A DNA stretch of 64,000 bases from an uncultured Methanomassiliicoccales archaeon (GTDB lineage: Archaea; Thermoplasmatota; Thermoplasmata; RBG-16-68-12; JAJISG01): assembly GCA_964347325.1 (NCBI GenBank), contig CAYFYA010000010.1:1041-65040 (forward strand), given 5' to 3'. The notes beneath the pieces were generated by a model, which saw only the letters and a program-made list of their open reading frames with translations, was not told the origin of the DNA and did no database searches. Made by a program: the position numbers and the translations under genes. Positions 4,263 to 53,557 of this stretch are shown here, in pieces. The stretch's first letter is position 1. The number at the start of each line of letters is the position of its first letter.

Positions 4263-6844
4263 GATTCGGGTGGCTCAGGCGGATGCTCCCTTCTGTAGCG
4301 ACGGTAGAGGTATACGGCGAGGGCAATCAGAGCCGCGGAAGTCAACACCGCTATGATCACCGTCCAGAGGTCGACGGGGGCCGTAGGCTGCGAAACGCCC
4401 TCGACGTGGAAGAAGACTGAGTCGATGTCTCGGAGCCCAGCCAAGTCGAAGGCTTCGAGGGTTACAACGTGGACCCCATCCTCCTCAACAATGAGGGTGT
4501 ACTCCCCTACATTCCCCTGAAGGTCGACGGCGTCGCCATCGAGGCTCACTCTCATCCGTTGAATGCCAGGCCCGTTGTCGGTGGCGCGCCAGATCAACGG
4601 TATCTGGGCGGAGGAGAGCCGGCTACCGTTAGTAGGAGAGAGGATTGTCACCGTGGGCGGCGTGATGTCAAGAATCGTTGCCACCATTGTGTCGCCGGCT
4701 AGATTGCCCGCAGCGTCCTCGACCGTCAGGCCGACGATGTATTCCCCTGGGTCCTCCCAGACCTTCTCCACCACGGGCGTCTCCGTCGTAATCTGGCTGC
4801 CGTCCCCGAAGTCCCACGTGTAACTCACGACGCGGAAGTTGTCGCTAGATCCACCCGCGTCGAGAATGATCGGAGTATCCTCGGGGCCAGTGAAGTCTGA
4901 CCCCGCGTTCGCCACCGGGGCCACTGAGTCCGTCAACATCGCCTCGATGACCACGAGGTCCTCGTGAGCCTGCAAGAAGTCGAGGTCAAGATAGTCGCTG
5001 TAGAAGGCCGTGAACTCTGGGTTCAGGTCGAGAGGTTCCCGTGAGTCGAGGATCGATAGCACTCCCCGTAGCTTCTCCCGGACGTAGAGTCGATGAAGGG
5101 CGTCCTCCCAGAAGAGGCCGTAACTTAGGTCGTTCATGAAGTACCCCATGTTCCCGTTGACGAAGTCGGAAGTGTAGTTGGGGCCGAACTGATGGCCGTA
5201 ACCCAGGTTGTGTCCCGTCTCGTGAGAGATGATGGAGGTCAGGCCCTTCTGCCGGCGGCCATCCGAGTAGAACAAGCGCTCCGTCTTGAGGAAGATCGCG
5301 GTGATGCCGGAGCCGCCGAGGCCCGTGAACTCACGTGGCCCGTAGACCATGGAACGGTTGTCATAGAGAAGGTTCACCGTCAGGACCTCGAACGCATCGG
5401 GGTTGTCCCACACAAACTGGTCCTTGTTGCTGAAGAGGTAATTCCATACCTCCACGCCGTCGATGAAGCCCCTTTCTCCGACGAAAGTGGTCACGGAGTC
5501 GACGAAGTCCTTCAGGTCGGTGTAATTGTCGATGAGATCGAAAGTCGTCTCTACGGTCCACTCCTTGAAAGGTAGGAATCCCTCCAGGTAGCTCTCCAGG
5601 GCCAGGTCGGAGGAGACCCAGAGGAGTTCCTCCAAGGAGTGGTTCTGAGAGCCGCTCAAGACATAGTTCTGGATTAGGACGCTGGCCTGCGTGGGGGGCG
5701 TACCTGGCAAGGTGGCCCCCAGACCCTCCACGAGGTCGTTCAGAACGCCCGACAGGTAAGCCAGGCGGGATGCCGAGTCTACCTCCTCATACTGCAGGCC
5801 GTAGGGGGCCCTCACATCTCCCCCCTCCCACCAGACGTAGGTCCAGTCGAGGTACCACTGGTAGGCTGTTGGGTCGATGTAGACCGCGTGGTCTCGTCCG
5901 CCCCAGATGTTCAGGGGGTAGGCCACGGGTGTGTTCAGGTCGTTGTCCCACTCTAGGCGCCACCAGTCCTGGGCAATGTTTGTGTCGGGGTCCATGGTGT
6001 CCTGCACGAACCAGTGGTCCGTGCCTGCCAGGGGATCATCAAGGGCGCTTAGGTTCAGGAGATAGACGGTGTAGCCCCCTTCACGCAGAGAGGTCGTCGG
6101 CGGGAGCTGGTGCAGGTACAGCTCCGCCCAATTTGTCCGAATCTCCCATCCCTCCAGGGGGTCGAAGATATCCCTTGGCGTTCCACTGTCCCTCTGGTCG
6201 ATCAGCGCCGAGAGGTTGAGTCGGCCTTGGGGCGTGTCGCGGTAGGTCGCCTTTGACTGGAGGTAGGCCACCAATCCGTCGCGATAGGAGGCATCGGCTG
6301 ATTGGACGGAGAAGTCAAAGGTGAGGTCGAACTCCTCCAGGCTCTCGTCCAGAATCCTGAACACCGCGTACTCTGAGCGCAGCAGTGCGGCTACGTCGTT
6401 CGGCGACTCATCGAAACCGATGAGGACGACATCCACCGCGATCGTGTCCGGCGGCCACATGGCGCTGCCATCGAAGAATAGCACGAAAGTCTCCGAGCCC
6501 ACGAGAGCCGACCCATTTAGGACCTCGACGGCCAAGAGGTGAGTCCCGGAGGGCCACGATGAGGTGTCGACAACGTAGGGTGGGGGGAGAGACTGCGTGG
6601 GCCCCCCGTCGAGGGAGTACCTGACCTGCGTGAAGGGTGAGCCCGCGATGCTCAGTGAGACCTCCGTTCCGGGAGGTATGAGGGCATAGTTGAAGGGGGA
6701 GAGGAGGTCCACGCTTACGGTTCCGTTAGCGAACTTACGGGACGGTAGGTCGGAGGACTCTTCAAAGGCGGTTCCACCTGGGAGTACAACGAGGAAGCCG
6801 GAGAGTATCAGAACCAGGACGCAGAGTACTGCGGGTCGGGACAT
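4259..6844 (-). CDS. Secreted metzincin-like zinc metalloprotease with a PKD-like domain and a C-terminal TM anchor
   Basis: Signal peptide MSRPAVLCVLVLILSGFLVVLPGGTA, taking the internal ATG at 6844 as the start. HExxHxxGxxH motif (SHETGHNLGYGH). A PKD-like segment (VVSYTWDFGDGS). C-terminal TM helix plus an RRYRRE basic tail. Many N-x-S/T sequons. Confidence 0.7.
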   Translation of the reverse strand: MSRPAVLCVLVLILSGFLVVLPGGTAFEESSDLPSRKFANGTVSVDLLSPFNYALIPPGTEVSLSIAGSPFTQVRYSLDGGPTQSLPPPYVVDTSSWPSGTHLLAVEVLNGSALVGSETFVLFFDGSAMWPPDTIAVDVVLIGFDESPNDVAALLRSEYAVFRILDESLEEFDLTFDFSVQSADASYRDGLVAYLQSKATYRDTPQGRLNLSALIDQRDSGTPRDIFDPLEGWEIRTNWAELYLHQLPPTTSLREGGYTVYLLNLSALDDPLAGTDHWFVQDTMDPDTNIAQDWWRLEWDNDLNTPVAYPLNIWGGRDHAVYIDPTAYQWYLDWTYVWWEGGDVRAPYGLQYEEVDSASRLAYLSGVLNDLVEGLGATLPGTPPTQASVLIQNYVLSGSQNHSLEELLWVSSDLALESYLEGFLPFKEWTVETTFDLIDNYTDLKDFVDSVTTFVGERGFIDGVEVWNYLFSNKDQFVWDNPDAFEVLTVNLLYDNRSMVYGPREFTGLGGSGITAIFLKTERLFYSDGRRQKGLTSIISHETGHNLGYGHQFGPNYTSDFVNGNMGYFMNDLSYGLFWEDALHRLYVREKLRGVLSILDSREPLDLNPEFTAFYSDYLDLDFLQAHEDLVVIEAMLTDSVAPVANAGSDFTGPEDTPIILDAGGSSDNFRVVSYTWDFGDGSQITTETPVVEKVWEDPGEYIVGLTVEDAAGNLAGDTMVATILDITPPTVTILSPTNGSRLSSAQIPLIWRATDNGPGIQRMRVSLDGDAVDLQGNVGEYTLIVEEDGVHVVTLEAFDLAGLRDIDSVFFHVEGVSQPTAPVDLWTVIIAVLTSAALIALAVYLYRRYRREHPPEPPES

Positions 6845-6952
6845 CGTCTCACGCGAAGACTGTCTTGGGAGGGGATGGGGGCCTATTACTCTTTCTTGGG
6901 ACGGTGACCTCGGCCGTGGGCGAGAGCGCACACCCGGAGAGTTGCCCGCAAG

Positions 6953-9865: not shown

Positions 9866-12800
9866 GTGGAGGAAATAGAGAGAAGGAACCCGGTTAGACT
9901 CGCACTTTCAATGGCAGTCCTTCTTCTGATTGGGTTGTGGGGAGCTGCCGTGCTCCCTGGGGCCTCTGGAGCGATGGGGACCCTCACCCCGCCCTACTCA
10001 GATTCCGGCCTCGATACTGATGGGAACGGTCAATTTGACTACCTCGTTGTTGAGGCGTCCATTGACGTCACAGAAGCCAACGCCTTCCTGGTGGCAGGAG
10101 AGCTTCATGACGAAAACTTCACCTTCGGCGTCTCCGCCGAGAATGTGACGACCCTTGGCGTAGGCCTCCAAGCCGTGACGCTGTGGTTCTACGGTCCCGA
10201 GATCAACGCCTCCGGAGTCGACGGTCCCTACCTGGTGGAGCTCTATATCAACGACTACTCCAACTTCACCTTCCTCGACAATGACACCTACACTACAGGA
10301 ACCTACAACCACACCGATTTCGACGGATTTCCGGCCCTCTTAGAGCCGCCCCACGGGGACCACGGACTGGACACCGATGGTGACGGCCGCTTCAACCACC
10401 TTGTAGTGGACGTTTCGCTCAACGTGTCGGAGGCAGGGACCTACTCGATCGACGGTTTCCTGCGGAACGCGAACTACAGCCTAACCCTATCTACTAGCAA
10501 CGAGACGAGCCTCTCGGCGGGAGTCCAGACAGTGCAACTCTTCTACACAGGGTCCAACATCAATGCCTCGGGCGCCGACGGCCCCTATACTGTGAATATC
10601 GACCTTACAGATGTGGGAACCTTCATCCTCCTTGACTCTGGCACCCACATCACGGCTGCATACAGCCATCTAGACTTCGAGGAGCCCCCAGTGGAACTGT
10701 TGCCGCCCCACTCGGACTTGGGGCTGGACACCGACACGGACGGCCTCTTCGACTTCCTCGTCGTCGACGTAAGCGTCAACGTGACCGAGAACGACACCTA
10801 CGTCTTCCAGGGGACCCTTCACGATGCGAACTGGACTCTGATTGTTAGTGCTAGCAACACCACAGACCTGGGCTTGGGGGCGCAAGCAGTGCAACTCCAG
10901 TTCATGGGTTCTGCCATCAATGCCTCCGGCATCGATGGCCCGTACACGGTGGAGCTTTCCGTCAGACAGGCCGCGACCTTCGACCTCATCGACTCCGGGG
11001 ACCACACCACCGCCCCCTACAATCACACGGACTTCGAAGGGCCGCTCGCCCTCTTCGCGCCGCTTCATTCCGACTTTCCGCTGGATACCGATGGGGATGG
11101 TCAAATCGATTACCTGGTGGCGAACGTCACGATTCAGGTGAACAGCCCGGGGAACTTCGTGGTCTTCGGGAGCATCACCTTCGGACCTCCGGGTTCAGTC
11201 TCGACGCTGAACATCACGAGCCTCGACCCGGGCATCCACGTGGTGCCGCTCTGGTTCTACGGTCCTGGTCTGAGGAGCGGAGCTAGCGGCCCCTATATGG
11301 TCGGCTTATCCATCGTTGAGCTCACCACCTTCACCTTCCTAGACACCGACACATACTCGACTGGAAACTACTCCCCGGCGGACTTTGAGGGGGCAGAACA
11401 GCTTCTCTCCGCCCCCGCGACGGTCACCCCAACCATCGATGGTACCTTCTCCACCGGGGAGTGGGGCGACGCGACCGTGGTGAACCTTGCTCCCATACCC
11501 GGCAATCGGGTGCCCGCCCTACTGCACGTCAAGAATGACGCAGACCGTGTATACTTGGCATACGATGCCACTGGAGACACGACGGAGGATCTGATGGACA
11601 CTGGGTCCATAGCCTTCGACACCGGGAACGACGACATCACCTCGGATGGGGCGGAGGACGAGTTCCTACAGGGGGATGGCTTCCAGTCACACTACGTGTA
11701 CGATGCTTCCTTCACTACCTGGACCGTAGAGGATTCTCCGTACAACCCCAACCTTCCCAATCACCAGGGGCTGGAGAGCGCCATCGGCTTTGGCCCGAGC
11801 GAGAATAGCCCGATCGCACACCGGGTCTACGAGTTTGCCGTTCCTAGGAACCTCTTGGGGCTACAGGATGGGGAAATCGGATTCCACGGTGCGAGCCATC
11901 CGTCTCCCGGTGTCCTGGACGCGAGCATGCTCCTGGGCTACTCCGTCTGGCCCGTGGGGAGCGCCGGACCTCTGCCCCTGTGGGCGTACGGGGACCTCAT
12001 CCTAGCCGAGATCGGCCCCCCTCTACCGACCATCATCCTGCCGACAGGCGGCGCCACCATTGCTGCTCGCGATGTGGAGGTTCAGTGGACTGTCGCCGAT
12101 GGCGGGAGCGGAGTCGATCACTTCGAGGTCACCCTCGACACAGGCACGCCTGTAGTCCTTCCATCCTCGGCATCGAGCTACACCTTCACCGGTGTCGCTG
12201 ACGGCGCCCACTCTGTCACGTTGGCCGCTTTCGACAGCTCCGGGAAATCCCAGGCCGCTACAGTCGACTTCACCGTCGATGCGAGTCCACCCACCCTCTC
12301 CGTCGACTCCCCCGGGGATGACTCATTCCTTAACACGAGCACTGTGGAGGTCACCTGGACGGCCGGCGACGCCGGCTCGGGCATCGACCGCTTCGAGGTG
12401 ACACTGGATGGCGGAAGCCCCGAGACGCTCGCTGGGACTTCGAACAGCCACACCTTCGTCGACCTCGCCGACGGACTACACACGGTCAACGTGACCGCCG
12501 TTGACCAGGTAGGCAACGCACGGACCGTCCTGCTGGGTCTCACGGTCGACACCGTTCCACCCACGATCTCCATCACCTCGCCTGCCGCGAATAGCGTCGT
12601 CCCCTCAAGTAACGTGGACGTTGTCTGGGAGGCGGAGGATGCGACCTCGGGCATGGACCACTACGAGGTACTCTTCCTCGACGGGACCCCTGTGACCCTG
12701 CCCGGCACAGCGACCAGCTATACCCTCTCGGGCGTTGCGGATGGCGGGCACTCGATTGCAGTCATGGCCGTAGACCGCGCCGGGAACGAACAGTCCCAGA

Positions 12801-12943
12801 CTGTGGGCTTCTCAGTGGACACGAACATCTTCAGCCCGACGGGACCTTTCGGTGTCATGCTGATCGTTGTCATTCCGGTGGCGGTAGGGGGGGCGGCCGC
12901 TGTAGTCCTACTGCTTTGGTTCCGGAAGCGGGGCGCTGGATAG
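9866..12943 (+). CDS. Large N-glycosylated cell-surface (S-layer-like) protein with internal repeats
   Basis: Signal peptide. Four ~120-aa repeats, each carrying a DTDGDG Ca-binding-like loop. A unique middle domain. Three ~90-aa Ig-like repeats (VEVTWTAGDAGSGIDRFEVTLDGG). C-terminus SPTGPFG + TM + RKRGAG. Very high N-x-S/T sequon density. Confidence 0.8.
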   Translation: MEEIERRNPVRLALSMAVLLLIGLWGAAVLPGASGAMGTLTPPYSDSGLDTDGNGQFDYLVVEASIDVTEANAFLVAGELHDENFTFGVSAENVTTLGVGLQAVTLWFYGPEINASGVDGPYLVELYINDYSNFTFLDNDTYTTGTYNHTDFDGFPALLEPPHGDHGLDTDGDGRFNHLVVDVSLNVSEAGTYSIDGFLRNANYSLTLSTSNETSLSAGVQTVQLFYTGSNINASGADGPYTVNIDLTDVGTFILLDSGTHITAAYSHLDFEEPPVELLPPHSDLGLDTDTDGLFDFLVVDVSVNVTENDTYVFQGTLHDANWTLIVSASNTTDLGLGAQAVQLQFMGSAINASGIDGPYTVELSVRQAATFDLIDSGDHTTAPYNHTDFEGPLALFAPLHSDFPLDTDGDGQIDYLVANVTIQVNSPGNFVVFGSITFGPPGSVSTLNITSLDPGIHVVPLWFYGPGLRSGASGPYMVGLSIVELTTFTFLDTDTYSTGNYSPADFEGAEQLLSAPATVTPTIDGTFSTGEWGDATVVNLAPIPGNRVPALLHVKNDADRVYLAYDATGDTTEDLMDTGSIAFDTGNDDITSDGAEDEFLQGDGFQSHYVYDASFTTWTVEDSPYNPNLPNHQGLESAIGFGPSENSPIAHRVYEFAVPRNLLGLQDGEIGFHGASHPSPGVLDASMLLGYSVWPVGSAGPLPLWAYGDLILAEIGPPLPTIILPTGGATIAARDVEVQWTVADGGSGVDHFEVTLDTGTPVVLPSSASSYTFTGVADGAHSVTLAAFDSSGKSQAATVDFTVDASPPTLSVDSPGDDSFLNTSTVEVTWTAGDAGSGIDRFEVTLDGGSPETLAGTSNSHTFVDLADGLHTVNVTAVDQVGNARTVLLGLTVDTVPPTISITSPAANSVVPSSNVDVVWEAEDATSGMDHYEVLFLDGTPVTLPGTATSYTLSGVADGGHSIAVMAVDRAGNEQSQTVGFSVDTNIFSPTGPFGVMLIVVIPVAVGGAAAVVLLLWFRKRGAG
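9983..11422 (+). repeat. Four tandem ~360-bp (120-aa) intragenic domain repeats (units start near 9983, 10343, 10703 and 11063)
   Basis: Protein-level periodicity (L.PPHsD.GLDTDgDG.fd.LVvdVs.nV.e...DGPY.V.l). The DNA copies are diverged. Confidence 0.7.
12025..12830 (+). repeat. Three tandem ~270-bp (90-aa) Ig-like domain repeats
   Basis: Repeated PPT(L/I)S..SP...S...VeVtW.a.DagSG.D.fEV.lDgg.p..L...a.S.tf..vaDG.H.v.v.A.D..GN. Confidence 0.6.
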
Positions 12944-45325: not shown

Positions 45326-46354
45326 GTGAGCTTCATCGACCTCAGGAGCGACACAGTGACCTTGCCGACGGACGAGATGCGGGAGGCAATGGCCAAGGCG
45401 GAGCTGGGCGACGATGTCTTCCGAGAGGATCCGACGGTGAATCGCCTGCAGGAGAAGGCCGCGGAACTGCTGGGAAAGGAGGACGGCCTCCTGGTGACCA
45501 GCGGGACCCAGGGCAACCTCGTGTGCTTGATGGCGCAGACAAGGGCAGGCGAGGAGGTCATCGTCGAGGAGGCCTCTCACATTCTGAACAACGAGAGTGC
45601 AGGAATCTCGCGGATAGCGGGGCTAATCCCAAGACCGATTCCTGGTCAACACGGGGTGCTGACGAGCAAACAGGTAGAGGAGGCCCTCCGGCCCCCAGAC
45701 GTTCACTTCCCGCGGACGAGCATCGTCTGTCTGGAGAACACTCACAACGCCGCGGGCGGCACCATCGTCGACGCCACTCAGATGAGGGACGTGGCCCAGG
45801 TCGCGCGGGAGAGAGGACTTAAGCTCCACGTCGACGGCGCCCGCATCTTCAACGCCGCCGTCGGCCTGGGAGTCCCTGCTTCGACCTTGGTGGAGGAGGC
45901 GGACTCCGTCACCTTCTGCCTCTCGAAGGGTCTCAGCTGTCCAGCAGGATCCGTCGTGGTCGGGTCCACCGACTTCATCGGGGAGGCCCGGCGCGCCCGG
46001 AAGGTCTTGGGAGGCGGCATGAGGCAGGCAGGCGTCCTCGCCGCAGCCGGTCTGGTGGCCCTGGAGACGATGATTCCCCGGCTGGCGGAGGACCACGAAA
46101 ACGCCCGACTCCTTGCCGAAGGTATTGACCGCATTGGAGCCGTGGACATAGACCTCAAGAGCGTTCAGACCAACATAGTCATCTTTGACGTGGCGCCGCT
46201 CGGCGTGTCTTCCTCCGAATTCGCCTCCACTCTGGAGAAGAAGGGCCTCAAGGTCACGACCAAGGGGAGAACCAGAGTCAGGTGTGTCACCCATCGTGGC
46301 ATTGGCAGCGGAGATGTCCACTCCGCGCTGCAAATCCTCGAGGATGCTTTCTGA
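45326..46354 (+). CDS. ltaE: Low-specificity L-threonine aldolase (PLP-dependent)
   Basis: N-terminal IDLRSDTVT, SGTQGN, the PLP lysine region FCLSKGL, 342 aa. Confidence 0.85.
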   Translation: MSFIDLRSDTVTLPTDEMREAMAKAELGDDVFREDPTVNRLQEKAAELLGKEDGLLVTSGTQGNLVCLMAQTRAGEEVIVEEASHILNNESAGISRIAGLIPRPIPGQHGVLTSKQVEEALRPPDVHFPRTSIVCLENTHNAAGGTIVDATQMRDVAQVARERGLKLHVDGARIFNAAVGLGVPASTLVEEADSVTFCLSKGLSCPAGSVVVGSTDFIGEARRARKVLGGGMRQAGVLAAAGLVALETMIPRLAEDHENARLLAEGIDRIGAVDIDLKSVQTNIVIFDVAPLGVSSSEFASTLEKKGLKVTTKGRTRVRCVTHRGIGSGDVHSALQILEDAF

Positions 46355-46544
46355 AGCTTGACAGGAATGGAGTCGTCAGTCAGCCACTGGACCACAGCGG
46401 CAGGCTTTGCTCGCCACCCCCTGCGCTTCCATCCGTGCGGTGCCATCAGTAGCTGTCATTTCGCCGGGTGGTCGTGGTGGGGATGGTGACAGTCAGGGCC
46501 TCCGTGGACTTGGAGAATCGACAACAACCCAGCAGTCCCGAGAA

Positions 46545-47156
46545 TCACGGAAGGGATGACTTCCTCCGCAGCAAGTAGACACATACGAACAGGCCTCCCA
46601 CGAACACCGGGAGAGCCAGGAAGGGGATGTTAGGGATGGCCTTCTTGTGGATTCTGTAATCCTTCTTGTCTGGAGCCCTATCCTGCCTGGGCTGGAAAGA
46701 GTCAGTACCCTGGTAGTTCTCAAACCGCACTGTCACATGGGAATCGCCAAGCCCACCTATGATGTCCACCGGAGCCTGGAAGATCAGACTGTGATTGAAA
46801 TCGTCTTCTGTGACCGTGATGTCTTCGACGAATATCCAGTCGGTCCCATCCCAAAGCTCAAGATAGCTACCGGACAGGGCATGTACGAACCGGTAGTCTT
46901 GTTCTGCAGAACCGACGCCCATGGTGATGTAGACTACGTAGGTATATGAGTCGATCTCAGGGGAAGACACCAGGTCCTCCCTGAGGAAGAGGTGGGTCGT
47001 GTTGGTGGCGTAGAACAGGTCCACCATATCCACAGGGTCTGGGGCGTCGCCAGCATTCTCATCGGGTGGATCGTCCAACTGAAGCCATTCGGGTTCTGCG
47101 AGGGCTCCAGGGATAAGGAGGACCGAGACCAATAGATACACTGGCCAAATCCTCAC
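46545..47156 (-). CDS. Secreted protein with a tripartite C-terminal signal (PNIPF motif + TM + RRK), hypothetical
   Basis: Signal peptide MRIWPVYLLVSVLLIPGALA. C-terminus IPNIPFLALPVFVGGLFVCVYLLRRKSSLP. Confidence 0.45.
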   Translation of the reverse strand: MRIWPVYLLVSVLLIPGALAEPEWLQLDDPPDENAGDAPDPVDMVDLFYATNTTHLFLREDLVSSPEIDSYTYVVYITMGVGSAEQDYRFVHALSGSYLELWDGTDWIFVEDITVTEDDFNHSLIFQAPVDIIGGLGDSHVTVRFENYQGTDSFQPRQDRAPDKKDYRIHKKAIPNIPFLALPVFVGGLFVCVYLLRRKSSLP

Positions 47157-47797
47157 TCATCCCCCTCCATGAACTCCTCGGGTGAGAGCAGGGCGTTCAG
47201 GACCTCCAGCTCTTCGATGGCTCGGGACTCTCCGACAGGGACCACCAGGTGGACTCCATCAGTGGCGATGACGTCCTCCAGGATCTCGGCCCCGGGGTAG
47301 ATGTCCACGCGGCCCTCGGTGAATATACCCCGCACGATGGCCCCGGGCTTCAGGGTGACCTTCCCAGCGGCGTACACGATGCCCTGGACGTAGCTGAACT
47401 TGTCCATCTCCACCTCGCCGCCGGAGATGATGTTGCCGTAGGCCTTCGCCCGCTCGGCGAGGAGCACGCCTTTCTGAGCCTTCCCGCTTCCTCTCAGGAC
47501 GGAGCCTTCCGCCAGCGTCAGATGTCCTCGGGTGACGACGTTGCCATCCATCTCCGACTCCTCGAGGATCTCCAGGTCGACGCCCAGCCTTGTGACTCCC
47601 GGTCGGGCCTTGGGGTCCGTTATCCTGGCTTGGCGCCTAGATGTCCGCACCCGCCTCTTCTCCAGGTCTAGGGTCGTTGTGGGCACCACCCTGGGGCCCC
47701 GATCGTGAACCCTGGTGTGCTCCAGAATCAGCGGGATCATGAGGACCGCGGGGAGGGAGAGGCCGAGGAGGAGGAGCCAGGGTAGCGACACGGCCAT
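47153..47797 (-). CDS. Bactofilin-like (DUF583 beta-helical polymer-forming) protein with an N-terminal TM anchor
   Basis: Repetitive GxV/GxI beta-helix pattern (GSVLRGSGKAQKGVLLAERAKAYGNIISGGEVEMDKFSYVQGIVYAAGKVTLKPGAIVRGIF). Confidence 0.5.
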   Translation of the reverse strand: MAVSLPWLLLLGLSLPAVLMIPLILEHTRVHDRGPRVVPTTTLDLEKRRVRTSRRQARITDPKARPGVTRLGVDLEILEESEMDGNVVTRGHLTLAEGSVLRGSGKAQKGVLLAERAKAYGNIISGGEVEMDKFSYVQGIVYAAGKVTLKPGAIVRGIFTEGRVDIYPGAEILEDVIATDGVHLVVPVGESRAIEELEVLNALLSPEEFMEGDE

Positions 47798-49060
47798 CTA
47801 CCTACCCCCCGTCGCGCCGACAGCGTGAACGCCGTTGCCGTTGTGTGCAGTGTGGTTCCACTCGTGCTTCCCGTTCCGCCTCACCATGAGCTGCAGGAAC
47901 GCCAGGGTGCACACTAGGACATTGATGAAGAAGGCCACCAGGAGGCCCGGGAGCATCCACAGGAAGCTCTTCCTCTTGTCCATGTAGACACCCAGGCCCA
48001 CCTCGAAGAAGGGGGCAAAGTTGCCCACGGCGCTGTATGTGAAGACGGCCAGGGTGCCGAAGTAGAAGGGGAGAATGGGCGGGGACTCCGTGAGGAAGGC
48101 GGCTATGCCCAGAATCCAGCCCGCGAACAGGAGGATGGGCGAGAAGTAGAGCCACAGGAAAAGAATCATGTCCAGCTTCTGAAGGCGAGAGAGCCTGGGC
48201 GTTCGGAGGACGGCGCCGCTGTAGCGAAAGGCGCATTGCATGTGGCCCTTGGCCCACCTGTGGCGCTGCTTCCAATACGCCCGCCAGGTCGTTACGGCTT
48301 CCTCATAGGACTCTGCCTCCAGGACATAGCGGACTCGGTAGCCTTCCAGGACCGCCTTCGCCGTCAGGTCCGTGTCTTCCGCCAGCACGCTTTCGTCCCA
48401 GCCACCGAAAGCCTCCAGCAGCTCGCGCCGGAAGCCGCCCACGGTGCCGCCGTACTGGGGAATCAGTCCGAAGTGGTCACGGGCCACCTGGTCCACCCGG
48501 TAGCCACCGATCCTCTCCAGGGTGACGAGTTTGGATACGAAGCTCTCGTCCTCGTTGTAGACGGTCACGCGGCCCTGGACACCTCCGACCTCGGGGTCCA
48601 GGAAGGGGGCCACGAGCTTCTCCACGATGTCTCGCTGGGGCATGTAGTCGGCGTCAAAGGTCAGGATGATCTCACCCTGCGACCTCCGGAAAGCGTCGTT
48701 GAGGGCAGCGGACTTCCCGTTCCCTCCCACGGGCCTGTGCAGGGGCCGGATGTTGGGGTGCTCTGCGGCGTACTCCTCGATAATGTCCCCGGTCCTGTCC
48801 GTCGAGGCGTCGTCGATGGGGACGATCTCCAGCTTCTCCTTGGGGTAGGTGGTGGCCACCAGCCGGTCCAGCAGGTGGCCAATCACCATCTCCTCATTGT
48901 GGCAGGGTATGAGGATCGAGACGAGGGGTCGGTAAAGCCCGGCGACCTCCTGGTAGCTCTTCTCCCGCGGGGCACGGAAGAGGGCCAAGTATGAGAGGAC
49001 GTAGTGGCGGGCCATGTAAACCAGCATGACCGCTACGATCGGCAGGAGGAAGTACTGCAT
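47798..49060 (-). CDS. Processive family-2 glycosyltransferase (cellulose synthase / PgaC / NodC-like) with a C-terminal multi-TM region
   Basis: VSILIPCHNEE, PIDDASTD, TFDADY, QGRV, and the Q(R/Q)xRW motif WKQRHRWAKG. Start set at the internal ATG (49060), which overlaps the upstream gene's stop (ATGA). Confidence 0.8.
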   Translation of the reverse strand: MQYFLLPIVAVMLVYMARHYVLSYLALFRAPREKSYQEVAGLYRPLVSILIPCHNEEMVIGHLLDRLVATTYPKEKLEIVPIDDASTDRTGDIIEEYAAEHPNIRPLHRPVGGNGKSAALNDAFRRSQGEIILTFDADYMPQRDIVEKLVAPFLDPEVGGVQGRVTVYNEDESFVSKLVTLERIGGYRVDQVARDHFGLIPQYGGTVGGFRRELLEAFGGWDESVLAEDTDLTAKAVLEGYRVRYVLEAESYEEAVTTWRAYWKQRHRWAKGHMQCAFRYSGAVLRTPRLSRLQKLDMILFLWLYFSPILLFAGWILGIAAFLTESPPILPFYFGTLAVFTYSAVGNFAPFFEVGLGVYMDKRKSFLWMLPGLLVAFFINVLVCTLAFLQLMVRRNGKHEWNHTAHNGNGVHAVGATGGR

Positions 49061-49599
49061 CACGCGGGAGTCACCTCCGGTGCCCAGCGGCTCATGAGAG
49101 ACATGCCCACGGACCAAACGACTATCATCCAGAGGAAGTCGACCATGGGTGAAAAGATGAAGTGGACCATCCCGAAGGCATCCATGCCTGCGTAGTGGGC
49201 TGCAGAAGCTGAGAGGACGAGGCGATTGATGTTCCAGAACACGCCGACGCCTGCTCCAACGGTGGCCCAGGCAGCCTTGAACCAGAAGGGGCCCTGAAGG
49301 AGACCCATGGTGGCTGCCAGCAGGAATCCGAAGATCGCCACCGTCACAAGGCCTGAACACTCAACCAGGATGGAGAAGGCGGTGATGTCCCCGTTCGAAT
49401 TCTTGACGTAGAGCATGGGGCTGTTGGGAGCGAGGACCAGGACCGAGGGGACCCCACCCAGGGTGAGGATGCCATGGGTCAGCTGGGCAGTGAGCTCCCA
49501 AGCAAGTGGCAAGGCCAGAAAGATGGCGAGGACCGCGGCTATTCCACCCTGAGCTAACGCAGCCCCGAAATTGGGCCTGATCCACATTCGCGACAGCAT
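49060..49599 (-). CDS. Small exosortase/archaeosortase-domain membrane protein (XrtG/ArtE-like)
   Basis: 179 aa, 5-6 TM. Conserved-looking VECSGL Cys motif plus downstream Arg/Asn (WNINRLVL). The stop overlaps the GT2 start. I recognised this by pattern only. Confidence 0.4.
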   Translation of the reverse strand: MLSRMWIRPNFGAALAQGGIAAVLAIFLALPLAWELTAQLTHGILTLGGVPSVLVLAPNSPMLYVKNSNGDITAFSILVECSGLVTVAIFGFLLAATMGLLQGPFWFKAAWATVGAGVGVFWNINRLVLSASAAHYAGMDAFGMVHFIFSPMVDFLWMIVVWSVGMSLMSRWAPEVTPA

Positions 49600-49687
49600 G
49601 TCGCCACCCTGCCACAGGCTGAAGGCTCCTCTCGTCCTCCTGACTATTGAAACACGATCCGGAGTTCACTTAGAGAGTTGGATACAG

Positions 49688-49707
49688 TTATCAGAGGAGA
49701 TTATCAC
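49688..49707 (+). promoter_or_regulatory. Motif GTTATCAgaggaGATTATCAC in the divergent promoter between the exosortase-like operon and the epimerase gene. It closely resembles the 19624-19646 element.
   Basis: ggag(t)gattatcac is shared almost exactly with the site upstream of the RHH gene. Read directly from the sequence. Confidence 0.3.
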
Positions 49708-49799
49708 CGGCGTCACTAAGGGCCTCCAGACCGCTGGCTGTCCGACCAGCGCCCTCGACGCCTCGCAGGTCTTATTGTCCGTGGGGAGTTGGGTGTGTC

Positions 49800-50782
49800 G
49801 TGTCACGCGAGGACGGGACGGCTCTGGTCACAGGGGGAGGGGGCTTCATCGGCAGTCACCTCGTCAGGGCTCTTCTCACGGCGAACTTCGAAGTCAGAAT
49901 CCTTGACAACCTCTCAAGCGGCTCAAAGAAGTCGGTCCCCGGGAGGGCCGAATTCCTCATGGGGGATTCCTGAACCCGCAGGATGCCGCCGAGGCGGTGA
50001 GCGGCTGCGACCTCGTCTTACACTTGGCCGGCAACGCCAATGGCAGTCTATCGGTGGAGAATCCTCGTCTCGACTTCGAGGCCAACGTCTCGGGGACCTT
50101 CAACCTCCTGGAAGCGGCCCTGGAGGGCGATGTGAGGCGATTTGTGTACGTCTCGTCGGCTTCCGTGTACGGGGTCCCGCACGGCTTTCTCATTGGAGAA
50201 GAGCATCCGTTGGTCCCCTTCATGCCCTACGGCACCTCGAAGCTGGCCGCGGAGAGGTACTGCAGGACCTTCCTAAACACCTTTGGCCTCCGGACCCTAA
50301 TCGCCAGGCCCTTCTGCGTCTACGGCCCCGGCGAGCACCCGGACCTGGCCCTCGTCGAAGTGTCACGCTACCTTCGATGGCACCTCGATGGGGCGCCCAT
50401 TCAGGTCGTGGGCGATCCAGATAGGAAGACCAGGGACTTCGTCAACGTGGACGATGTGGTCAGAGGCCGTATCATACTCGCGGAGAGGGGTGAGGTGGGC
50501 GAGGCGTACAATATCGGTTCAGGGGAGGAGACGTCGATGAGGGAGCTCGCCCACGTGGAGGGGGACATCACGGGTCGAAAGGTTGAGCTGATGGAGATCG
50601 AGAACGTCACCGAGGACACGTATCGCCTGGTGGCGGACATTTCAAAACTCGAGTCTCTTGGTTACTCCCCGGCCGTGTCCCTGGAGCGGGGGGTGAAACT
50701 GCTTGCTGAGGAGTTGGGAGAAAGCCCCGCGCTTCCTTCTGGGTCGACCATCTTCCACCCAGGGCAGGCGGCTGAGAGGTGA
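49800..50782 (+). pseudogene. NAD-dependent epimerase/dehydratase (UDP-sugar 4-epimerase-like) interrupted by a single-base frameshift near 49967-49972
   Basis: Frame 0 encodes the Rossmann N-terminus ALVTGGGGFIGSHLV...RAEFLMGDS*. The adjacent frame continues (F)LNPQDAAEAVSGCDLVLHLAG...YVSSASVYG...YGTSK. Inserting one T after gat restores GD(F/L)LNPQD. Confidence 0.65.
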
Positions 50783-50789
50783 ACCACCC

Positions 50790-51401
50790 TCAGAGGCCAG
50801 CCGTGATCATGAAGAAGGCGCCGGTGGCGATGAGGAAGGACCCAAGGACCACGGATACGGTCCTCCTGACTCCCGGGCTCCAAAACCGCCTGGTCTTGTG
50901 CACCGTGGCGGACACGAAACCATTCCATCCCAGGTCGCAGCTCCAGTGGACGATAGCGAAGGCCACCATTCCCACGAGAGCGAAGGGGTACACCAGCAGC
51001 ATGAGGGCCAGGCCGATGGTGAGCCACCAGAGGATAAAATAGGGATTGGAGGCCGTTGTCAGGATTCCCAGGAGAAAGGGGTGGTGGGGCATCGCCTCAT
51101 TCCCGAGGGCCTCCCTTTGCCGGAGGATGGTGTTGGCCCCCAGATATATCAGCACGACCCCTCCAGCCAGTCCGAAGATGAGGGTCACCTGGGGCACATC
51201 GATGAGGTAGGCGAAGCCAGCAAAGAGTATAGCCATCAAAGGGAACTCCACCACCCCATGGCCCAAGGCGATCCAGACGCCGGCCTTCCGGTCCTCGTAG
51301 CCCTTGGCAACGGCCGCGGCGAAGACCGGTCCCGGCATCATGACGCCTGTCAGGGAGATGAAGGCTGTAAGACCTAGGAGGTAGAACAGGTCGAGGGTCA
51401 C
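50790..51401 (-). CDS. LysE/RhtB-family amino-acid exporter
   Basis: 203 aa with 6 TM. An N-terminal PGP motif (GVMMPGPVF) and a TASNPY-type second motif (LTTASNPYFILWW). Confidence 0.7.
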   Translation of the reverse strand: MTLDLFYLLGLTAFISLTGVMMPGPVFAAAVAKGYEDRKAGVWIALGHGVVEFPLMAILFAGFAYLIDVPQVTLIFGLAGGVVLIYLGANTILRQREALGNEAMPHHPFLLGILTTASNPYFILWWLTIGLALMLLVYPFALVGMVAFAIVHWSCDLGWNGFVSATVHKTRRFWSPGVRRTVSVVLGSFLIATGAFFMITAGL

Positions 51402-51503
51402 AGGGTCATCCTGCCGAAGGTCATGGCTCAGGTCTGCTTATGGCTTCCGGAGTCCCTCACCAGCCAAGCCCATTAAAGCAGCCCGAGCGTTTCACAGGCG
51501 GTC

Positions 51504-52448
51504 ATGAGAATTCTGAGTTACGATGAGGTGGACCCTTATGAGGTCTACAGGCTCGGAATGGTTGCCTTCAACTGGCCCATCACGCCGAAGTACGTCAAGC
51601 ACCGCCTCCAGAGAGATCCCCGGGTTCTCGACGGCTTCGCCATCTACGCCGTGGAGGGAGGCAAGGTCGTCTCGCAGGTTGTTCCCCTCAAGATGCGTGT
51701 CCGCTTGACGACCGGTGAGGAGACTGTGGGAGGAATCCAAGGTGTCTGCACAGATCCGGATATGTGGGGGAAGGGATACGCTCGGCGCCTCATGGTGCGC
51801 AGCCACGAGATTTACAGAGAGCTGAGCATCCGCATATCGACGCTGACGACCAGCCGCAACATCCGTGGTCATGGCATTTACGCAAAGCTAGGCTACACCG
51901 ACCTGCCACCCTTCTTCCAAGCTACGCGACTCCTACCGACAGAGCGTGAGGGGCCCAAGGGACTGCACATCCGCAGCGTGAGAGAGAAGGACCTTTCCGC
52001 GATCCAAGGGTTCTACGAGGTTCACACATCTGACCAGTTTGGATGGTCGCTACGGGACCCTGGTCTTCTTCGGATGAAAGTCGCGTGGGACCGGAAGACC
52101 CTCGATCCATACCGGATCGTGACGAGGGACAACACCGACATCGGCTACGTCCGCGCGCCGGGCCAGGGCGTGCTAACTGATGAGATCGTCATCCCAAGAG
52201 CCGAGGATTTCAAAGACATCTTGCGGGCCTTAGAGAAGGATGCGAGGGGGGATTACGCCTGCGTCTCCAGCGTGTCGACGGGACGAGACCTGGAGAGGCT
52301 CGTCGCGCTCGGGTACACCCCCTCCAGTTCCATGATGGGCAAAGTGATGGCTTTGTCCCTCTCCTCAGGGCTCAAGACAAAGGAGCTTCCACAACTCTTC
52401 GGTTCCAAGGATGGGCGTTTCGTCTTCTATCCCACGGACGGCTTCTAG
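51504..52448 (+). CDS. GNAT-family N-acetyltransferase (long, possibly Eis-like with two domains)
   Basis: Acetyl-CoA-binding pattern VCTDPDMWGKGYARRLM (Q/RxxGxG/A). 314 aa. Confidence 0.6.
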   Translation: MRILSYDEVDPYEVYRLGMVAFNWPITPKYVKHRLQRDPRVLDGFAIYAVEGGKVVSQVVPLKMRVRLTTGEETVGGIQGVCTDPDMWGKGYARRLMVRSHEIYRELSIRISTLTTSRNIRGHGIYAKLGYTDLPPFFQATRLLPTEREGPKGLHIRSVREKDLSAIQGFYEVHTSDQFGWSLRDPGLLRMKVAWDRKTLDPYRIVTRDNTDIGYVRAPGQGVLTDEIVIPRAEDFKDILRALEKDARGDYACVSSVSTGRDLERLVALGYTPSSSMMGKVMALSLSSGLKTKELPQLFGSKDGRFVFYPTDGF

Positions 52449-52489
52449 GGCGAAGGATGGAGTCGCCGCCCCTTCCGGGAAGCCCAACC

Positions 52490-53557
52490 CTAGGGCAGGA
52501 AGAAGAAGCCCACAGCGATGACAGCGTACACCACCAGTAGGAGTACACCCTCAAACCAGTTGCTCTCCCCGTCGTTCGCCACGGCACCGAAGATAGCGAC
52601 CGCGAGGCCTATGGCGATGAGCTCGAATATCTCGAAGGCCAGGGTCAGTTGGTTGCCAATGATGATGGAGGTGAAGACCAGGATGGGGGCGACGAAGAGG
52701 GCTATCTGAGCGCTGCTCGCGGCTGCTATCCCGACGCTAAGGTTCATCCGATTCCGCCAGGCCACCATCACGGCGCTACTGTGCTCTGCCGCGTTTCCAA
52801 TGACGGCGATGACAATGACGCCGAGGAAGAGCTCATTGAGCCCGAAAGCGGCGATGGAGGACTCCACCGCGTTGATGAGGATCTCGCTCATCACAGCTAC
52901 CAAGGCGGTCGCGCCACCCAGAACCAAGAGGGAGAAGCCGCGAGTCCACTCGGACTCTTCCTCCTCCTCCCCACGCGGATTGAAGATGTGGCGATGGGTG
53001 CGGAGGCTGAAGATGAGTCCCCCCACGTACGCGACGATGAGCAGTATTGAGATCGCGACGCTCATGGAGGAAATGGCCTCCCCCACGACCTCGGTGCCCG
53101 CGGAGAGGAGGAGCACCGAGGGTAAAACGAGACCCACGGTGGCGAGGAGGAGCATGGTGGCTCGGGTCGACGCCGCCCTCCTCTCAAAGGTCTGCTTCCG
53201 GTGCCGCAATCCTCCCGCAAGCATGCTGAGTCCGAGGATCAGGAGCAGGTTGCCTATGATCGAGCCCGTGATGCTCGCCTGGACAAGGGTGACGAGGCCG
53301 GCTCGGAGGGCAGCTATGGCAATGATGATCTCTGTCAGATTCCCAAAGGAGGCGTTGAGCAACCCGCCGAGGCCGGGTCCCACATCCTTGCCCAACTCCT
53401 CTGTGGCGACCCCCATGAGATAGGCCAAGGGCAGGATGGCTACGCCGGCTACTGCGAAAACCAGGAGAGACGAGACGTTGAGGAACCATAGGAGCACCGA
53501 GAGTGATACCATTATGGCAATTACCACGGAGATCTTGAGTAGCCTGGGGCCCGCCAT
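52490..53557 (-). CDS. Ca2+/H+ (cation) antiporter, CaCA/CAX family
   Basis: Two alpha-repeat signatures GNLTEIIIA and GNAAEH, about 11 TM. Start set to the ATG at 53557 (MAGPRLL...). Confidence 0.8.
   Translation of the reverse strand: MAGPRLLKISVVIAIMVSLSVLLWFLNVSSLLVFAVAGVAILPLAYLMGVATEELGKDVGPGLGGLLNASFGNLTEIIIAIAALRAGLVTLVQASITGSIIGNLLLILGLSMLAGGLRHRKQTFERRAASTRATMLLLATVGLVLPSVLLLSAGTEVVGEAISSMSVAISILLIVAYVGGLIFSLRTHRHIFNPRGEEEEESEWTRGFSLLVLGGATALVAVMSEILINAVESSIAAFGLNELFLGVIVIAVIGNAAEHSSAVMVAWRNRMNLSVGIAAASSAQIALFVAPILVFTSIIIGNQLTLAFEIFELIAIGLAVAIFGAVANDGESNWFEGVLLLVVYAVIAVGFFFLP

Follow-up and report, generated by a model that had tools for sequence, protein, structure and literature searches.

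Enzymes of the exosortase/archaeosortase superfamily are repeatedly encoded beside polysaccharide genes, as in the PEP-CTERM/EpsH, XrtG and XrtP systems. The present work concerns a cassette of four genes that encode a small sortase-like membrane protein, a family 2 glycosyltransferase (GT2), a bactofilin-like protein and a secreted protein with a single transmembrane (TM) helix. The cassette is located in a 64,000-nucleotide stretch of DNA from an uncultured Methanomassiliicoccales archaeon (contig CAYFYA010000010.1, positions 1,041 to 65,040), which as a whole is called the window below. On balance, the cassette is probably a dedicated archaeosortase-type module for surface processing that is organized around a polysaccharide synthase and belongs to an unnamed subfamily.

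The closest described system is XrtG of Firmicutes, in which a short exosortase likewise occurs with GT2 genes and a single CTERM protein (PMC12854382). The statement of the original prediction for this DNA that XrtG has no known substrate is outdated, as annotated genomes list a protein with a Firmicu-CTERM sorting domain as part of the system (PMC12854382). In ArtA, the archaeosortase of Haloferax volcanii, a cysteine and an arginine are among the residues shown to be critical (PMC9263693). Canonical bactofilins are described as binding the membrane peripherally through a short N-terminal peptide (PMC12448750). In the archaeal halofilin HalB, a Sec signal peptide and five TM helices accompany a bactofilin domain that is extracellular (PMC11459167). 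In the searchable literature on archaeosortases with glycosyltransferases or bactofilins, on CTERM names and on ArtE/ArtF, neither the cassette nor its sorting tag is described, and no protein of the exosortase family is reported to have a bactofilin as partner.

The four-gene cassette and its conservation

The four genes are arranged head to tail on the minus strand between positions 46545 and 49599 (Table 1), and all four open reading frames (ORFs) are present as originally described. They are real rather than chance ORFs, because each has homologues on many independent contigs and the gene order is kept far beyond the close relatives of the host. Neighbouring genes overlap or abut. At the first junction, GTGATG, the TGA stop codon of the sortase-like gene overlaps a GTG or ATG start of the GT2 gene; the GT2 and bactofilin-like genes abut (TAG-ATG); and the bactofilin-like gene shares the four nucleotides GTGA with the fourth gene, whose GTG start is consistent with the MR(I/A)WP start of its orthologues. 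The overlaps had been read as ATGA and have to be corrected to TGATG and GTGA. They suggest translational coupling.

Synteny was examined in 90 loci from Thermoplasmata, Bathyarchaeia and metagenomes, which were collected by context look-ups and one metagenome scan. The loci were counted as 58 clusters of the sortase-like protein at 90% identity, and only those with enough flanking DNA entered each count. The GT2 gene is next after the sortase-like gene in all 54 assessable cassettes, the bactofilin-like gene is next in 37 of 38 (the exception being L033/L040), and a homologue of the fourth protein, tagged with [IV]P[EN][LI]P, a TM helix and a basic tail, occupies the same position in 25 of 28. 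In close relatives (64-83% identity) the order of the four genes is retained, and so is the flanking synteny. The same order is found in a deep Thermoplasmata-type relative and on a Bathyarchaeia contig (L015), where identity to the window proteins is 45% for the sortase-like protein, 57% for the GT2, 28% for the bactofilin-like protein and 33% for the fourth protein. Both the gene order and the GT2 pairing, on which the original prediction had been staked, are thus kept across archaeal phyla, and it is well supported that the cassette is a conserved functional module of at least two of them. In many loci a second GT2 gene follows the cassette, and a gene for UDP-GlcNAc 2-epimerase or an NAD-dependent epimerase lies beside several.

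One variant cassette (L082, 6134-13723) has the order sortase-like gene (with Arg replaced by Gln), GT2, bactofilin-like gene, PgfS/Dpm-like GT2, GT4 and a gene for an 879-aa (amino acids) PTPS_related (PF10131) membrane protein, with a polysaccharide deacetylase gene 5 kb upstream. A protein of this contig is labelled 'Latescibacteria bacterium DG_63', a bacterial label that may be a binning error. The PTPS_related domain also belongs to XrtG loci; the L082 protein, which matches no NCBIfam model, remains a lead.

Sequence comparison gives good support for the placement of the polytopic 179-aa protein in the exosortase/archaeosortase superfamily, within an unnamed short-form subfamily. The protein scores 39.6 bits against the TIGR04178 signature (cut-off 23), in agreement with the family membership proposed for it; nine of ten diverse relatives pass as well, with 31-51 bits, and the L082 member scores 25.5. 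The Pfam model Exosortase_EpsH is missed narrowly (24.2 against a gathering score of 25.7). XrtG (TIGR03110) is the top-scoring named family, with 40.8 bits against a cut-off of 102.75. The cut-offs of the other short forms are missed too: ArtF (TIGR04293) with 23.4 against 150, XrtX with 18.4 against 170, ArtD with 17.1 against 125, XrtS with 13.7 against 145 and XrtR with 10.6 against 150. ArtC, too, scores below ArtF. The ten relatives likewise reach no named subfamily cut-off. They score 20-33 bits with the XrtG model, are as weak to ArtF, ArtC and XrtX, and match XrtA weakly at 15-20 bits.

The candidate catalytic residues Cys81, Asn123, Arg126 and His146 all occupy conserved columns, which include the Cys/Arg/Asn triad looked for in this family, and Asp154 is invariant too. 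Cys81 and Arg126 are invariant in the Thermoplasmata clade; the Cys, Asn123, the Arg and His146 are also invariant in every Cys-bearing cassette of other lineages. All Cys-bearing members, from Thermoplasmata to Bathyarchaeia, share the column pattern E/Q-C-S-G...K...W-N-x-x-R...H...D...W. Cys81 and Arg126 correspond to the critical Cys173 and Arg214 of ArtA, which lie at the ends of TM helices; the spacing is 45 residues here, as against 41 in ArtA (PMC9263693). When Cys-less members are included, the residues invariant throughout the family are G83, K108, W122, D154 and W162.

The window protein is identical to a database entry from NCBI/Logan contigs, and its closest named relatives are 'MAG: Thermoplasmata archaeon' proteins annotated 'exosortase/archaeosortase family protein'. 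Annotation pipelines already use this generic name, together with 'polymer-forming cytoskeletal protein'. The named matches of the family come from metagenome-assembled genomes (MAGs) of Thermoplasmata and Bathyarchaeia. A profile search retrieved 55 members among 1.84 billion representative proteins, so the family is rare, and a tblastn search of the protein against plasmids gave zero matches.

The GT2 is, as far as its sequence tells, a well-supported membrane-embedded enzyme of the synthase type, with all the D/D/D/QxxRW motifs of a beta-glycan synthase (Table 1); the cellulose-synthase/PgaC-like character ascribed to it stands. Its GT-A domain lies between an N-terminal TM helix and C-terminal TM helices (TM segments aa 4-22, 299-317 and 373-391), and the protein scores 109 bits with Pfam Glycos_transf_2. 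Its best NCBIfam match is PgaC_IcaA (TIGR03937), with 144.5 bits against a cut-off of 422.3 over model positions 7-398 of 407. The XrtG-associated model TIGR03111 gives 64.9 against 363.95, and is outscored by both PgaC_IcaA and glyco_with_XrtP. Among solved structures it comes nearest to 6YV7 (E 1e-28), a minimal archaeal GT2 that resembles cellulose synthase, and after that to BcsA and the hyaluronan synthases.

Since the XrtG and TIGR03111 cut-offs are not reached and Firmicu-CTERM is not matched, the cassette is an unnamed archaeal analogue of the XrtG system and not a member of it. The archaeal counterpart that was predicted, with a bactofilin and a candidate substrate, survives in its exosortase-family enzyme, GT2 pairing, bactofilin and tag; membership in XrtG itself is not supported.

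The third protein (214 aa) has, with good support, a bactofilin fold on an N-terminal TM anchor, which is the form foreseen for it. Its TM helix (aa 5-30) is followed by a disordered basic linker (aa 31-64), the beta-helix and a C-terminal helix (aa 192-204). In the comparison, for which TtBac (6RIA), BacA (2N3D) and HalB served as references, the beta-helix is right-handed and triangular, like that of bactofilins. The Pfam Bactofilin model (PF04519) gives the window protein 23.7 against a gathering score of 27.9; it matches 15 of 15 aligned homologues at E <=0.01 (best 1.2e-9), and several database relatives carry a precomputed PF04519 match and the name 'polymer-forming cytoskeletal protein'. 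The conserved motif E26..D32-x-G34-P35-R36, in juxtamembrane position, has the nearly invariant family form E-x5-D-x-G-P-R-x2-P. The beta-helix is predicted to be cytoplasmic (N-out/C-in), because there is no positive n-region and strongly basic residues come after the TM helix.

Longer bactofilin-like versions, of up to 729 aa and with a low-complexity middle, occur in other loci (L015 1612-3222, L062, L026-L028, L038, L057, L074 and L075). Many of them have a winged-helix-like segment (e.g. ...EICLRLLMDPSEVDKTINSLIKKGYLD...), and some a C-terminal TM hairpin. Genes for a small Ras/Arf/Roc-like GTPase and a KaiC-like ATPase (PF06745) lie within a few genes of the cassette in loci of different clades (L001, L002, L017, L018, L085 and L086); in the window neither is found near it. 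Small GTPases act with bactofilins in Myxococcus polarity.

The fourth protein and its C-terminal tag

The fourth protein has a Sec-type signal peptide (aa 1-21, MRIWPVYLLVSVLLIPGALA/EP). Its ectodomain (about aa 44-150) is a beta-sandwich, which a DRAPD...Y.I linker joins to a C-terminal tag. The protein ends in ...KKAIPNIPFLALPVFVGGLFVCVYLLRRKSSLP, and its C-terminus with the tag reads ...KKAIPNIP-FLALPVFVGGLFVCVYLL-RRKSSLP. In the AlphaFold2 model (pLDDT, the predicted local distance difference test score, 76) the ectodomain is a beta-sandwich, and the tag region (173-180) is modelled as flexible, with pLDDT <50. The protein has no Pfam or NCBIfam family match, and NCBIfam scans of the whole protein, of its last 45 residues and of its Bathyarchaeia counterpart gave no CTERM model at E <=10, Firmicu-CTERM and PEP-CTERM included. 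A profile search against PDB sequences and a Foldseek search against PDB returned generic beta-sandwich matches only, with weak Ig-like/glucodextranase-domain likeness. These matches, to glucodextranase 1UG9 (E 8e-4) and nanobodies, gave no functional assignment.

The tripartite C-terminus that had been pointed out is conserved across orthologues and makes this protein the best substrate candidate. About 30 distinct C-termini give the family consensus (H/R)-E-V-I-P-[EN]-[LI]-P-[WG]-x-T-P-L, followed by the TM helix and a tail rich in R/K. When 19 divergent fourth proteins are aligned, the first Pro of the motif is the sole invariant column, and the second Pro and one Phe of the TM helix are nearly invariant; an alignment of database homologues has the same pattern. 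The ectodomains drift to barely detectable similarity or acquire extra domains, and the tag is the most conserved part of these proteins. A pattern scan found one tagged C-terminus per locus, always that of the fourth gene. Within the 64-kb window it found a tagged protein only at 46545-47156.

Two natural fusions place the tag in the same polypeptide as the enzyme. P0025 (L016 1140-2714; ...EIPEIPWPPILL) and P0033 (L086 4561-6912; ...SIPELPPPLFPL) each consist of a secreted part, an IPE[IL]P tag, a TM helix and a sortase domain that keeps the Cys and the Arg, and in both the cassette GT2 gene is next. P0025 has an alpha/alpha-toroid-like repeat as its secreted part and P0033 an FG-GAP-like propeller, both unrelated to the ectodomain of the fourth protein. 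The tag-TM-sortase order of the fusions requires the N-terminus of the sortase domain to be cytoplasmic. This places both Cys81 (outer end of TM2, where the helix starts) and the WNxNR motif (end of TM3) on the outer side, beside the tag.

The presence of the tagged protein was also compared with the state of the active site. Two degenerate cassettes are fully visible, L089 (Cys lost) and L082 (Arg to Gln). Both have the GT2 and the bactofilin-like gene and lack the tagged protein, which is present in 25 of 26 cassettes with intact active sites as against none of these two (hypergeometric p ~0.008, uncorrected for shared ancestry). Tag conservation, one-to-one adjacency, the fusions, the loss pattern and the topology are several independent lines that support, and do not prove, the fourth protein as a dedicated sortase substrate recognized through a new tag, for which the name IP[EN]LP-CTERM is used here.

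The genome GCA_964398605.1 has two paralogous cassettes, one with the Cys-bearing fusion (L086) and one with a Cys-less sortase-like protein (L087, RYSG). Genes for an S8 peptidase of 1105 aa and a polytopic membrane protein of 788 aa precede the latter, and the GT2 gene and the start of a bactofilin-like gene follow it. Two more distant and longer exosortase-like proteins from the search of representative proteins (P0049 and P0058, about 248 aa) contain an internal 'PIP(L/F)' + TM + basic segment immediately upstream of a DWSCSG sortase core, which may be another arrangement of the tag in cis. A second public record (L019, JABAOF010037498.1) is a near-identical copy of window positions 46348-52881 that diverges or has an indel below about position 46850. 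Its fourth protein has the variant C-terminus IPNIPVLALPVFVGGLSAGVYLLRRKFTLP, as against ...IPNIPFLALPVFVGGLFVCVYLLRRKSSLP in the window, which suggests strain-level variation in the helix and tail that leaves the IPNIP motif unaffected.

Proposed mechanism and alternative readings

If the cassette is a processing module, the fourth protein would be exported by Sec and retained in the membrane by its C-terminal helix. The mini-sortase, with its N-terminus inside, would present Cys81 and WNxNR at the outer membrane face, recognize IPNIP at the outer end of the helix, cut the tag through a Cys thio-acyl intermediate and hand the ectodomain to an acceptor. The most likely acceptor would be the glycan made and extruded by the PgaC-like GT2, or a lipid-linked or amine-bearing form of it, and a covalent bond would then link protein and polymer at the cell surface. 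The GT2 product is favoured as acceptor by inference. The TM-anchored bactofilin would polymerize on the cytoplasmic face and cluster or position the synthase-sortase units through its juxtamembrane motif; its role as a cytoplasmic organizer of the synthase is equally conjectural. In Gluconacetobacter a belt-like cytoskeletal structure, which has been compared to bactofilin structures, lies under the cellulose synthase arrays (PMC8892547). As a precedent, this belt is limited to form. The synthase complex probably includes the sortase-like protein as a structural subunit as well, which would explain why Cys-less paralogues are still paired with the GT2 and the bactofilin.

A bolder version is tentative and, in our estimation, unlikely to hold in full. 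It pictures the cassette as a machine for the covalent coupling of a secreted protein to nascent surface polysaccharide: a complex of mini-archaeosortase and synthase would resolve the thio-acyl intermediate onto the glycan, a bactofilin filament would arrange the units, and the Cys-less paralogues would be pseudo-sortases kept as synthase subunits.

Several observations weigh against a processing module. Many distant members without the Cys (QRSG, QRVG, EFSG, RYSG, QFSG and others), in which His146 is often lost along with Cys81, adjoin the same GT2, and the bactofilin-like gene too where the contig reaches far enough; the GT2 pairing is therefore independent of catalysis. The narrow alignment used as the metagenome search pattern contained ECSG, so this part of the sample is biased to Cys-bearing members. 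The loss pattern is drawn from two cassettes only, and around one intact cassette (L072/L073) the 2.7 kb downstream and the 1.8 kb upstream contain no tagged protein. No residue could be matched to Arg253 of ArtA: the invariance of Arg171 is confined to the close clade, and its position is variable across the family (R/K/G/E/P/S). Conservation of the TM part of the tag is unusually high, as would also be expected of a stable contact of an uncleaved subunit. Finally, we infer the cleavage, the acceptor and the glycan.

One alternative is a synthase complex without proteolysis. The exosortase-like protein would then be a non-catalytic subunit of the GT2, comparable to PgaD with PgaC, and the fourth protein a permanent single-pass subunit, for example with a glycan-binding or glycan-guiding ectodomain, whose IPNIP motif and TM helix serve as a docking element. 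The universal GT2 adjacency, retained by Cys-less members, fits such a complex, as do the exclusion of the nucleophile from the family-wide invariants and the well-conserved tag helix with its near-invariant Phe. It is nevertheless unlikely. No lineage with a tagged protein has lost the Cys, Asn, Arg or His, across phylum-level divergence and at 35-45% identity, and both visible cassettes with a degenerate site lack that protein. The tag, moreover, sits on unrelated ectodomains, has been fused upstream of the enzyme domain, and has the tripartite layout of known exosortase/archaeosortase signals.

The same layout, together with the family signature and the Cys/Arg pair, is shared with ArtA, whose cleavage and subsequent lipid attachment is the only archaeosortase mechanism to have been established experimentally (PMC9263693). 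By analogy, the mini-sortase could cleave the tag and attach the protein to a membrane lipid. The GT2 would then make an independent exopolysaccharide or glycosylate the protein, and the co-localization of the genes would reflect co-regulation only. This is decidedly unlikely: ArtA-type enzymes have many substrates scattered over the genome and no fixed place beside a GT2 themselves, the link to the GT2 is tighter than that to the substrate (54/54 against 25/28), with overlaps that suggest translational coupling, and nothing in the cassette resembles enzymes of lipid headgroups. Orthology with the bacterial XrtG system by horizontal transfer from Firmicutes is highly improbable, since, for all the top rank of XrtG among the named families, its like make-up as given above and the PTPS_related protein of L082, with a domain that also belongs to XrtG loci, the scores far under both cut-offs contradict it, the relatives are as weak to ArtF, ArtC and XrtX, Firmicu-CTERM has no match, the named relatives are archaeal and the L082 protein is itself unmatched in NCBIfam.

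The processing module therefore remains the preferred reading. The cassette would reduce the connection between sorting and glycans to a minimal, highly stereotyped form, with one enzyme, one synthase, one scaffold and one substrate, and it comes with two natural experiments, the fusions of substrate and enzyme and the active-site-dead paralogues without substrate. If the coupling to the glycan is true, it would provide the first defined acceptor for an exosortase-family enzyme next to a glycosyltransferase and the first genetic link in archaea between a cytoskeletal polymer and glycan secretion. IP[EN]LP-CTERM is a new candidate sorting signal that could enter annotation resources, and the third protein represents a new archaeal bactofilin architecture, tied to a synthase. 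In Thermoplasmata and Bathyarchaeia, two groups with poorly known envelopes, the cassette points to the presence of a glycoconjugate at the surface.

Neighbouring genes and relation to known systems

Table 1. Positions of the cassette genes, of their motifs and of other surface protein genes in the window
Feature	Position	Strand	Basis or remark
Sortase-like gene, 179 aa	49060..49599	-	ORF; VECSGL present
Candidate catalytic Cys81	49357-49359	-	conserved column
Candidate catalytic Asn123	49231-49233	-	conserved column
Candidate catalytic Arg126	49222-49224	-	conserved column
Candidate catalytic His146	49162-49164	-	conserved column
GT2 gene, 420 aa from ATG 49060 or 421 aa from GTG 49063	47798..49063	-	ORF
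IDDAS, aa 82-86	48803-48817	-	GT2 motif
FDADY, aa 135-139	48644-48658	-	GT2 motif
AEDTD, aa 227-231	48368-48382	-	GT2 motif
QRHRW, aa 265-269	48254-48268	-	GT2 QxxRW motif
Bactofilin-like gene, 214 aa	47153..47797	-	ORF; N-terminal hydrophobic helix, then beta-helix
Beta-helix of bactofilin-like protein, aa 68-184	47246-47596	-	modelled, pLDDT >94
Fourth gene, 203-aa secreted single-pass protein, candidate sortase substrate	46545..47156	-	ORF
Tripartite C-terminal tag, IPNIP + TM + RRKSSLP	46548..46640	-	alignments of C-termini
IPNIP, aa 174-178	46623-46637	-	tag motif; TM helix about aa 177-197
S8 peptidase with PQQ/BamB-like beta-propeller repeats, 2170 aa	38685-45197	-	C-terminal TM helix anchor
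Large surface protein, OmpL47-type barrel domains	9866-12943	+	C-terminal TM helix anchor
Large surface protein, OmpL47-type barrel domains	4259-6931	-	C-terminal TM helix anchor

The window has a GC content of ~61%. Scans of it for tRNA genes and Rfam families gave zero matches, and sigma-70 promoter and terminator scans gave counts at chance level, with models that are uninformative for an archaeon. A gene for an NAD-dependent epimerase/dehydratase (49783-50782, plus strand) is divergent from the cassette and is interrupted by a frameshift near 49960. One frame encodes the Rossmann part (VTGGGGFIGSHLV...), and the remainder forms the ORF 49997-50782, which matches Pfam Epimerase only from model position 64. 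Because the identical sequence is present in L019, the split gene is either a pseudogene or an assembly error shared by the two records.

The other large surface proteins of the window had been put forward as further clients of the sortase. The proteins of 2170, 1025 and 890 aa have no IP[EN]LP motif and no CTERM model match, and the 'SPTGPFG' C-terminus does not match PGF-CTERM. As they are tag-less and match no CTERM model, and as there is one tagged protein per locus, the proposal is unsupported. The giant protease gene looks inserted between a threonine-aldolase-like gene and an RFC gene, relative to L003 and L004.

Among known systems, XrtG of Firmicutes is the closest analogue, as it also has a short-form exosortase of about 180 aa directly beside GT2 genes and one dedicated protein with a C-terminal sorting domain (PMC12854382). 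The cassette differs in its archaeal hosts and in its tag, [IV]P[EN][LI]P. It may also differ in its TM-anchored bactofilin, a near-constant third partner. The ArtA/PGF-CTERM system of Haloferax volcanii has in common with the cassette the TIGR04178 superfamily, the conserved Cys and Arg, and a signal made of a motif, a TM helix and basic residues, with cleavage expected at the outer membrane face (PMC9263693). ArtA is, however, a long form with many substrates and lipid transfer and is not linked to a GT2, whereas the cassette enzyme, a short form of 179 aa, has a single candidate substrate encoded next to it and is always accompanied by a GT2. The PEP-CTERM/XrtA (EpsH) system resembles the cassette in the genetic tie of an exosortase-family enzyme to polysaccharide biosynthesis, and in a Pro/Glu-rich tag (VPEP, as against VIPELP) that is followed by a TM helix and an Arg-rich tail. 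It is found in diderm bacteria with many substrates per genome, and the PEP-CTERM model is unmatched here.

The cassette GT2 shares its full-length architecture and its D, D, D and QxxRW motifs with PgaC/IcaA, with NodC and the cellulose and hyaluronan synthases, and with the archaeal PcManGT (6YV7). It stays below the equivalog cut-off of PgaC/IcaA, and its small membrane partner is exosortase-like, not PgaD/IcaD-like. The third protein is, like HalB, an integral-membrane archaeal protein with a bactofilin domain (PMC11459167). Unlike HalB and the canonical bactofilins, it has a single N-terminal TM anchor, the E..D-G-P-R motif and a predicted cytoplasmic beta-helix, the predicted orientation of which is opposite to that of the extracellular domain of HalB, and its gene sits inside a synthase operon.

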